The notes under the pieces: generated by a model
Seen by the model: only the letters and a program-made list of their open reading frames with translations
Database searches by the model: none
What the model was told of the DNA's origin: nothing
NCBI GenBank assembly: GCA_963667205.1
Contig: OY762959.1
Coordinates: 1,875,601-1,939,600, forward strand
Origin: Dehalococcoidia bacterium
GTDB taxonomy: Bacteria; Chloroflexota; Dehalococcoidia; SM23-28-2; RBG-16-64-32
Reading direction: 5' to 3'
Length of the DNA: 64,000 nt
In this document: positions 13,418-13,657 of the stretch, one piece after another
How positions within the stretch are numbered: the stretch's first letter is position 1
Layout: each line of letters begins with the position of its first letter
Translations under genes and position numbers: made by a program

Positions 13418-13657
13418 CTAGTCGCGGAAAGTAGTGGTTCCGCGGTGCGCCGTCGTATTTTCCGCTGGGCAGGCAGCAGCGCTTGAAAGCGGCGTCCTGA
13501 TCCGCAGGGACATAGGTCGTTCCGCCCGAGTTTCTCGCTCAGTTCCTTGTCGCCGTGTACCTCGCGGAATCCACGCTTGACTCTGCTCTCCGATGGGAAG
13601 CCCTTGCGGCGCTTGCTTGTGATCTCAAAATGAGTAGTCCTTGTATTCGTGCGTCAC
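13418..13657 (-). CDS. SEC-C zinc-finger protein (about 78 aa) split by three +1 frame breaks at UUU codons
   Basis: RBS AAGGAGGT then [13 protein letters not shown] | [47 protein letters not shown] | [19 protein letters not shown] | RD*; the SEC-C motif is complete only after the second shift. Confidence 0.8.

Follow-up and report, generated by a model that had tools for sequence, protein, structure and literature searches.

The stretch of DNA analysed here, called the window below, comprises 64,000 nucleotides of a Dehalococcoidia bacterium genome (contig OY762959.1; the genome is referred to as G000). Its minus strand carries at 13657-13418 a short SEC-C gene, which encodes a protein of 78 amino acids once three +1 shifts are read through. 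The reconstruction of this protein, in which TTTN is read as a single step at each of the three sites, is designated P0001. The parts of the gene are as follows.

13663..13670, minus strand: Shine-Dalgarno (SD)-like AAGGAGGT, 5 nt 5' of the start codon and 3 nt past the rsgA stop codon
13657-13655, minus strand: GTG start codon
13628..13657, minus strand: segment 1, frame A, GTG plus 9 codons, the last of which is Phe TTT
13627..13630, minus strand: shift site 1, TTT_T, followed in the zero frame by TGA (13627-13625), a shifty stop
13486..13626, minus strand: segment 2, frame A+1, 47 codons
13467..13524, minus strand: SEC-C zinc-binding motif (Pfam PF02810), P0001 residues 45-63, complete only after shift 2
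13485..13488, minus strand: shift site 2, TTT_C, within the SEC-C motif, zero-frame next codon CAA
13428..13484, minus strand: segment 3, frame A+2, 19 codons, with CC as the remaining half of the SEC-C motif, then the conserved tail to Tyr-Phe
13427..13430, minus strand: shift site 3, TTT_C, zero-frame next codon CCG
13418..13426, minus strand: segment 4, frame A+3, Arg-Asp-TAG, with TAG at 13420-13418

An earlier note on this DNA had proposed this arrangement from the letters alone, and its ribosome-binding site, GTG, frames, three TTT sites and stop distance all proved to have correct coordinates on the minus strand; the TAG lies 5 nt from the stop codon (13410-13412) of a convergent Glyoxalase_3 gene. 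Also as the note had it, the remaining two Phe codons of the gene are TTC, both in frame, and the middle segment has no start codon, ATG, GTG and TTG all being absent from the 47 codons of segment 2. Segment 1 is homologous to the short acidic N-terminal peptide of relatives, segment 2 carries the basic N-terminal half of the protein together with CxC, the first half of the SEC-C motif, and the tail of two residues, R[D/E], that segment 4 represents is kept across the family. The claim that the second shift completes a SEC-C motif is borne out by Pfam, as PF02810 matches residues 45-63, straddling site 2, with 38.4 bits (cut-off 20.4, E 1.1e-9); P0001 belongs to SEC-C only with shift 2 read through, and all four Cys of the Cys-x-Cys ... 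Cys-Cys/His ligand pattern are then present. The NCBIfam equivalog models for YecA, YchJ and SecA score 27-34 bits against cut-offs of 140-158 and match the motif only; P0001 is without a SecA, UPF0149 or YchJ body, and its basic N-terminal region is family-specific. A search of window positions 13200-13900 against Rfam with E up to 1 gave no family.

Each of the three breaks consists of one surplus base at a T run, and the adjacent rsgA is split by a further surplus T (see below), which is the pattern expected if the extra T or C bases were sequencing or assembly errors at short homopolymers. The stretch was found in sixteen public runs from six studies, there being no RNA run among the 17 runs listed, and four runs from four studies were compared over 13250-14750, an interval that is spanned in full by one Logan contig in each of the four. 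Two of these contigs show 0 differences from the window, and the assembly may derive from them; the remaining two show 2 and 3 substitutions, one of them with a 1-nt deletion at 14048 in addition, and therefore represent other strains, the substitutions all lying outside the gene. No indel or single-nucleotide polymorphism was found within 13418-13657 in the contigs from the four runs and every T run is kept, so that the extra Ts, whose absence would have refuted the earlier note, are present in these contigs. The contigs of four studies and two distinct strains thus agree base for base over the gene, and the same breaks are seen in independent assemblies of other species and phyla, including isolates of Massilia, Caulobacter and Acidobacteriaceae. 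The T-run lengths are real and not an assembly error; error as an explanation of the breaks is effectively refuted and we give it next to no credence.

Recurrence of the shift sites across the family

The earlier note had dealt with the gene as a single oddity, and in this respect it has to be amended: the gene is one member of a large family across many bacterial phyla. Searching with P0001 gave 1879 protein matches of 42-137 amino acids (E up to 1e-3), 60-88% identical to P0001 and derived from cyanobacteria, Obscuribacter, Massilia, Chloroflexi-type bacteria and many unnamed sources, which where named are annotated as SEC-C, YecA-like or 'nucleic acid-binding protein'. Matches in the ESM Atlas are other small SEC-C 'hypothetical protein' clusters only. 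Few family proteins are single-frame throughout (one example, P0006, has the same tail as P0001). Many of the database open reading frames (ORFs) end exactly at a shift Phe, clusters of 111 and 105 members among them, and others continue past that Phe into unconserved sequence. The possibility that this is a mobile-element family was rejected on a search that gave two plasmid matches (both unannotated), no phage match and matches in three of 2.9 million viral contigs.

At the DNA level 566 loci were confirmed in species genomes, of which the best 80 were analysed, and 556 in metagenomes, of which the best 80 were kept, the 72 with the anchor motif being analysed and the 8 without it dropped. 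The genome-set loci include the isolates Massilia horti ONC3, Massilia pinisoli JCM 31316, Caulobacter sp. CCUG 60055 and Acidobacteriaceae bacterium KBS 96 as well as metagenome-assembled genomes labelled with more than 10 phyla. A position-specific score matrix (from alignment A2) was aligned to the DNA by dynamic programming that allows frameshifts, and scores within 2.5 of one another were taken as unchanged. The two sets were scored separately and figures are given below in the order genome, metagenome; the locus counts are not corrected for phylogeny.

An internal +1 shift is required in 70/80 and 69/72 loci, and a model restricted to shifts at TTT scores equally well in 66/75 (the 70 genome loci plus the five relatives described below) and 64/69. 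The base that follows TTT at the genome-set shifts is T in 45 and C in 25 and is never A or G (70/70); it is again only T or C in the metagenome set, and the same holds for all 134 TTT-linked shifts over both sets. Internal shifts are found at two positions, one after the Phe inside the SEC-C motif (25 + 37 loci; this is the position of site 2 in the window, and the homologous position thus shifts in 62 loci) and the other after the Phe ten residues further (43 + 27 loci). Every shift at these two positions occurs with TTT-Y (Y, pyrimidine; 132 cases), and an in-frame Phe at either of them is encoded by TTC or by TTT followed by a purine, with one exception (in the metagenome set). The two positions are nearly mutually exclusive: among the 154 loci in which both could be aligned, 59 shift at the first only, 68 at the second only and 2 at both, while 14 have another internal break and 11 have none. 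The total for most genes is therefore exactly three shifts, which brings them back to their starting frame. This exclusivity may be the mark of two ancient clades or of a limit on how many shifts a gene can have.

The ends of the gene behave in the same manner. The C-terminal site is TTT-Y followed in the +1 frame by [R/K], 0-4 residues and a stop in 67/81 and 49/68 loci (the position homologous to site 3 of the window, used in 116/149 scored loci), and an in-frame tail is seen in 8 and 12 loci, all of which have TTC, TTT-purine or a non-Phe codon there. N-terminally, TTT-Y closes a short upstream ORF (median 12 codons) in 77/85 and 51/71 loci, so that a site of the type of site 1 is present in 128/156 scored loci, most often as UUU_CGA (80/128); in many Planctomycetota-type loci this site sits in runs of 6-7 T. 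The upstream ORF combines an ATG with an SD-like motif in 84/125 loci, versus 12/125 for the body frame, and the body frame is without any start codon within 75 nt in 66/125. The number of shifts per gene is 1 in 4 loci, 2 in 19, 3 in 56 and 4 in 2 for the genome set, and 1 in 1 locus, 2 in 28 and 3 in 34 for the metagenome set; no locus with zero shifts was seen among those scored in either.

These features bear on the idea that only pieces of the gene are translated (the leader, or the middle from a non-canonical start) or that the element is a regulatory leader for downstream genes. Such an idea is encouraged by the great inefficiency to be expected of three unstimulated shifts in series and by the RNA-repair genes that in a minority of loci come immediately after the gene on its own strand, but it sits poorly with a zinc motif that is split by site 2 and whole only in the joined product, with short last segments (R[D/E] included) that are kept as amino acids while their codons and stops vary, and with pieces that are fused in frame where the Phe codon is TTC. 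The window gene, moreover, meets a convergent gene downstream and there is no operon for it to lead. We judge this explanation improbable.

Both the choice of codon and the assigned frames were examined further. In a codon control on a sample of 45 of the 144 loci that need an internal shift, the share of the score gain that was recovered came to 94.6% for TTT, 62% for the runner-up CGC, a codon that often precedes TTT, and 9% for the median codon. Codon-position entropies (positions 1/2/3, in bits) for the three body segments in their assigned frames are 0.45/0.40/1.44, 0.72/0.64/1.42 and 0.75/0.59/1.30, position 3 having about two to three times the entropy of positions 1 and 2 in each. The rule that emerges is that UUU-pyrimidine is a shift site and that UUC or UUU-purine is not, with exceptions that are considered below. 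The earlier note had asked whether the breaks recur in homologues or are private to this assembly, and the answer is that homologues are not consistently intact, the breaks falling at shared codons and the variation in each frame being concentrated at third positions; its proposal of several +1 shifts, each at a UUU on which tRNA-Phe could re-pair, is strongly supported by this recurrence. The recurrence and the 60-88% identity to small SEC-C proteins of other phyla go beyond what chance would give.

Relatives were sought in a first search of 41 related genomes and a second of 65 genomes of the order. The first gave the gene in G005, which is of the same genus, and in G015, which is of a different one, and the order search added G049, G047 and G050, making 6 of the 65 genomes in total, all of one bacterial family. 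In all five relatives the breaks lie at homologous Phe codons despite many substitutions, and reconstructions from relatives are 74% and 64% identical to P0001. The sites of G005 are TTT_T before TGA, TTT_C and TTT_T, and G049 has three TTT-Y sites. G015 has TTT_T before TAA, TTT_C, an additional TTT_C that sits exactly at the position of a Tyr in the others and makes a fourth shift, and TTT_C before Arg-Asp-TGA. The locus of G047 (L026) is cut by a contig end and its site 1 is CTT TGA C. G050 (L027, locus approximately 1400-1640) has sites 1 and 2, Ser (AGC) at the last site with the tail there in frame, a TTT-C that is read in frame at the Gly-Phe-Pro position, and a +1 break at GGG [T] TAC, with the very rare TTA as the codon that comes next in the zero frame. 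Synonymous/nonsynonymous codon differences between G000 and four relatives are 20/9, 16/12, 21/6 and 20/9 in segment 2; they are less clear in segment 3, which is short (5/5, 3/9, 2/7 and 4/7). Purifying selection is evident from the codon-position entropy and from the synonymous excess.

The copy in G000, or those of its bacterial family, could nevertheless be a decaying pseudogene of an otherwise functional family. The gene is present in only 6/65 genomes of the order, the first Cys has been lost in G005, G050 has an extra break that is not at TTT, and the adjacent rsgA is frameshifted in G000. Yet G000 retains the four Cys, the ribosome-binding site, the start codon and the conserved tail, its three breaks are at the canonical family sites, synonymous differences exceed nonsynonymous ones against four relatives in the main segment, and the contigs of the four runs show no further random indels or stops. 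Instead of the private random lesions and relaxed selection of a pseudogene, the lesions are shared and specific as to position and codon. Decay of the G000 copy is in our estimation very improbable, a little more so than translation in pieces.

Decoding at UUU-pyrimidine sites

The explanation that we favour, and regard as likely, is serial programmed +1 ribosomal frameshifting throughout the family. That the shift is made by the ribosome is inferred from the sequences, from which the trans-frame product is likewise predicted. Translation would start at a normal ribosome-binding site and start codon, in the frame of the short acidic leader. With UUU followed by U or C in the P site, the peptidyl-tRNA-Phe (anticodon GAA) would let go and re-pair one nucleotide on, with UUU or UUC, and the ribosome would then continue in the +1 frame. 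Three such shifts in the window gene (TTT_T/TGA, TTT_C/CAA and TTT_C/CCG) would join the halves of the zinc motif and reach the Arg-Asp-stop. Full-length output would be the product of the separate shift efficiencies, and this multiplication would make the gene a steep reporter of tRNA-Phe slippage or of a slowed next decoding step. Re-pairing of a GAA anticodon on UUU or UUC predicts the pyrimidine rule, all three window sites (TTT_T, TTT_C and TTT_C) allow P-site re-pairing, and the sites are conserved with protein-level selection on both sides of them.

The decoding machinery of G000 appears ordinary. ARAGORN found 52 tRNA genes, with a single tRNA-Phe (GAA) that has a normal 7-nt anticodon loop, and TTT is an ordinary, if rare, in-frame codon (1626 TTT versus 17414 TTC in 1592 long ORFs), often before C. 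There is therefore no special code or tRNA. The pattern does resemble a quadruplet code for Phe, as would arise if a dedicated tRNA with an enlarged anticodon loop read UUUY as a four-base codon, but none of the 52 tRNA genes has a four-base anticodon, and TTT-Y stands in frame both in ordinary genes and at one conserved position of the family itself; the likelihood of such a tRNA is accordingly minimal. Genome-wide quadruplet reading was rejected on the codon usage and tRNA set of G000, and absence of miaA was rejected as a cause of slippage for this genome, in which IPPT is present. A scan of G000 for other +1 transitions in GC content at third codon positions, a noisy and weak test, gave 216 candidates, mostly gene junctions and one with TTT-Y, and no sign of genome-wide UUU-Y recoding. 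Outside the window, at G000:C1:273880-273954, ARAGORN reported a tRNA-Lys-like gene with a 6-nt anticodon loop and a two-base 'anticodon' tt; it has an A-C mismatch at the top of the acceptor stem and may be a pseudo-tRNA, an unusual decoder or the result of an indel. The genome also has two normal tRNA-Lys (UUU) genes.

Loss of one U per T run at the RNA level, or transcriptional slippage, followed by standard translation would restore the frame equally well: one U dropped from TTTT or TTTC leaves an in-frame Phe, which gives the same protein and the same pyrimidine rule, and the runs of 6-7 T around site 1 in many Planctomycetota-type loci might be thought suitable. Most sites have only three T with other bases flanking them (for example CGC TTT C), however, and RNA-polymerase slippage requires much longer homopolymers. 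The CTT_T and CTT_C sites of G047, L070 and Acidobacteria-type loci also fit tRNA re-pairing better. An RNA-level origin is about as unlikely as the translation of pieces considered above.

Several observations weigh against ribosomal frameshifting as set out here. TTT-C stands in frame at the conserved Gly-Phe-Pro position in 6/58 and 6/56 loci and is also common in frame in other genes of G000, so UUU-Y alone cannot force a shift. Internal breaks are not after TTT in 14 loci, among them six with CTT CGG [C], two with CTG [T] GAT and G050 with GGG [T] TAC; UUU-Y is the main shift site and not the sole one. The G005 copy (L003, locus 1476-1715) has Tyr in place of the first Cys of the Cys-Pro-Cys zinc ligands and Leu-Gln instead of Arg-Asp as the tail after the third shift, and may be decaying. 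No common stimulator was found, SD-like 4-mers lying within 18 nt upstream at 18/128, 34/61, 14/70 and 7/123 sites, which does not amount to an SD-like stimulator of the prfB type. The zero-frame next codon is a sense codon (CGA, CAA, CAG or CCG) in about half of cases and a stop in the remainder, all three stop codons being found at family shift sites. The loci are phylogenetically related, so that the counts are not of independent events. At a few per cent for each unstimulated site, three shifts in series would leave almost no product, and this low expected yield is the weakest point of the explanation, unless slippage is raised.

The CTT CGG [C] loci form an Acidobacteria-type sub-family (L063, L070, L083, L139, L160 and L165) in which the break comes six residues past the usual site. 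CTT CGG [C] can equally be read as CTT_C, a Leu codon that would be able to re-pair; the C-terminal site of L070 is CTT_T before TAG.

Neighbouring genes and possible function

The gene lies 3' of rsgA, which encodes a 30S-assembly GTPase, in four of the five loci of the clade that have upstream sequence. In the window rsgA (13674-14754, minus strand) is itself split by one extra T in GTTTGG at 14539-14544 (minus strand), inside the conserved Pro-Ala-Val-Gly-Asp-Trp-Val; the upstream frame ends Val-Trp-TGA and the GTPase body is in the +1 frame. All four run contigs have the extra T, and rsgA is intact in G005, G049 and G050. This break is preceded by GTT and not TTT, and therefore simple re-pairing is no explanation for it; either this rsgA is a true pseudogene or the break is a further case of recoding. 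The 1-nt deletion at 14048, from the strain in run X9 (contig depth 6.4), also falls in rsgA.

Across the family no gene recurs in the upstream flanks. Downstream flanks in the genome set (76 loci) have Hen1_L in 6, TROVE/Ro60 in 5, RNA_ligase in 2, RtcB in 1 and RlaP in 1, and those in the metagenome set (58 loci) have TROVE in 7, AAA_33 in 2 and RtcB, RNA_ligase and Thg1 in 1 each. Same-strand downstream homologues form one cluster of six (L051, L055, L072, L081, L098 and L104) and one of five (L040, L041, L100, L101 and L107), and L028 is followed by RtcB; judged by matching cluster size to the Pfam tallies, the clusters of six and five would be Hen1_L and TROVE/Ro60, respectively. The associations are clade-bound, Hen1 with Planctomycetota-type and Ro60 with Verrucomicrobiota-type loci, and concern a minority of loci only. 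In G000 itself rtcB is far from the locus and no TROVE gene was found. The presence of RNA genes as neighbours in this minority hints at a link with RNA damage.

An AlphaFold2 model of the intact homologue P0006 (74 aligned sequences) has a mean pLDDT (predicted local distance difference test) of 58.6, with approximately 70 for the zinc knuckle alone, and the protein, which is basic, is predicted to be mostly disordered outside that knuckle. To judge by its SEC-C domain, its basic composition and its neighbours (rsgA in this clade, RNA-repair or RNA quality-control genes in others), the product is probably an RNA- or ribosome-binding factor. Rather more speculatively, three obligatory serial shifts could form an ultrasensitive translational gate, with a protein that acts on ribosomes or RNA together with Ro60, RtcB, Pnkp-Hen1, RNA ligase or RsgA; we hold this to be possible and on balance doubtful, as we do the proposal of the earlier note that the protein would be made only by slippage-prone ribosomes and would serve as a sensor or effector of translational fidelity. 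Such a gate would be in keeping with the features described above and would open with raised tRNA-Phe slippage or slowed A-site decoding, as might be triggered, for example, by damaged or under-modified tRNA, damaged ribosomes or lack of a release factor or aminoacyl-tRNA.

Comparison with known systems

The class of mechanism (P-site +1 slippage, shifty stop, UUU-Y) is already known. The apparent novelty lies in a bacterial family that is conserved over many phyla and has, as a rule, three obligatory sites within approximately 78 codons. If confirmed, it would be the first bacterial chromosomal family known to us in which a single short gene depends on several programmed frameshifts; plain UUU-pyrimidine, which is mostly seen as error-prone, would be in use by selection across many phyla, and the gene would offer a very compact natural reporter of how well the reading frame is maintained. 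The family is truncated or missed by gene callers, as the clusters that end at the shift Phe and the two unannotated plasmid copies illustrate, so that a conserved gene is mis-annotated in hundreds to thousands of genomes. The recurrent Ro60, RtcB, Hen1 and RNA-ligase neighbours provide a testable lead on how bacteria sense translational damage. In the literature covered, which excludes the supplementary cluster tables of GeneTack (PMC3711429) and subscription journals, no paper links small SEC-C proteins to frameshifting.

The SecA C-terminal metal-binding domain and YecA/YchJ share with the family the same Pfam SEC-C zinc or iron knuckle, and one report describes binding of the SecA domain to SecB and to ribosomes (10.1101/613315). 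As to the shift itself, prfB is the obvious parallel: its P-site tRNA re-pairs +1 on NUU_U while a stop codon waits to be read, TTT TGA at site 1 of the window belongs to this type, G047 has the prfB-type CTT TGA C itself, and UUU_U is the prfB shift site in a minority of species according to a review (PMC5009743). The two differ in that prfB has one site, a close upstream SD-like stimulator and autoregulation tied to UGA, whereas the SEC-C family has 1-4 sites per approximately 78 codons, no consistent SD-like element and many sites without a stop.

Genes with more than one obligatory frameshift for one protein are treated in the same review, which lists only retroviral gag-pro-pol, Euplotes nuclear genes and some mitochondrial genes (PMC5009743), none of which is a bacterial chromosomal gene; Euplotes differs further in its AAA_UAA-type sites and altered termination, whereas G000 reads TTT normally elsewhere. 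UUU-pyrimidine +1 sites are described as shift-prone in E. coli studies and in the Yersinia YopN-TyeA hybrid (PMC5009743, PMC4914553). These have the same tetranucleotide and the same proposed slippage of tRNA-Phe, and require no stop codon; the sites elsewhere are described as error-prone or as giving a minor hybrid product, whereas those of the SEC-C family are conserved across phyla and would be obligatory and serial. Influenza A PA-X, which shifts +1 on UCC_UUU_CGU (PMC3498833), resembles the family in that its UUU_C stands before a CGN codon and its +1 shift has no obvious stimulator. It is a viral/eukaryotic case with a single site used at a very low level to give an alternative C-terminus, whereas the shifts of the SEC-C family would make the only functional product of the gene.

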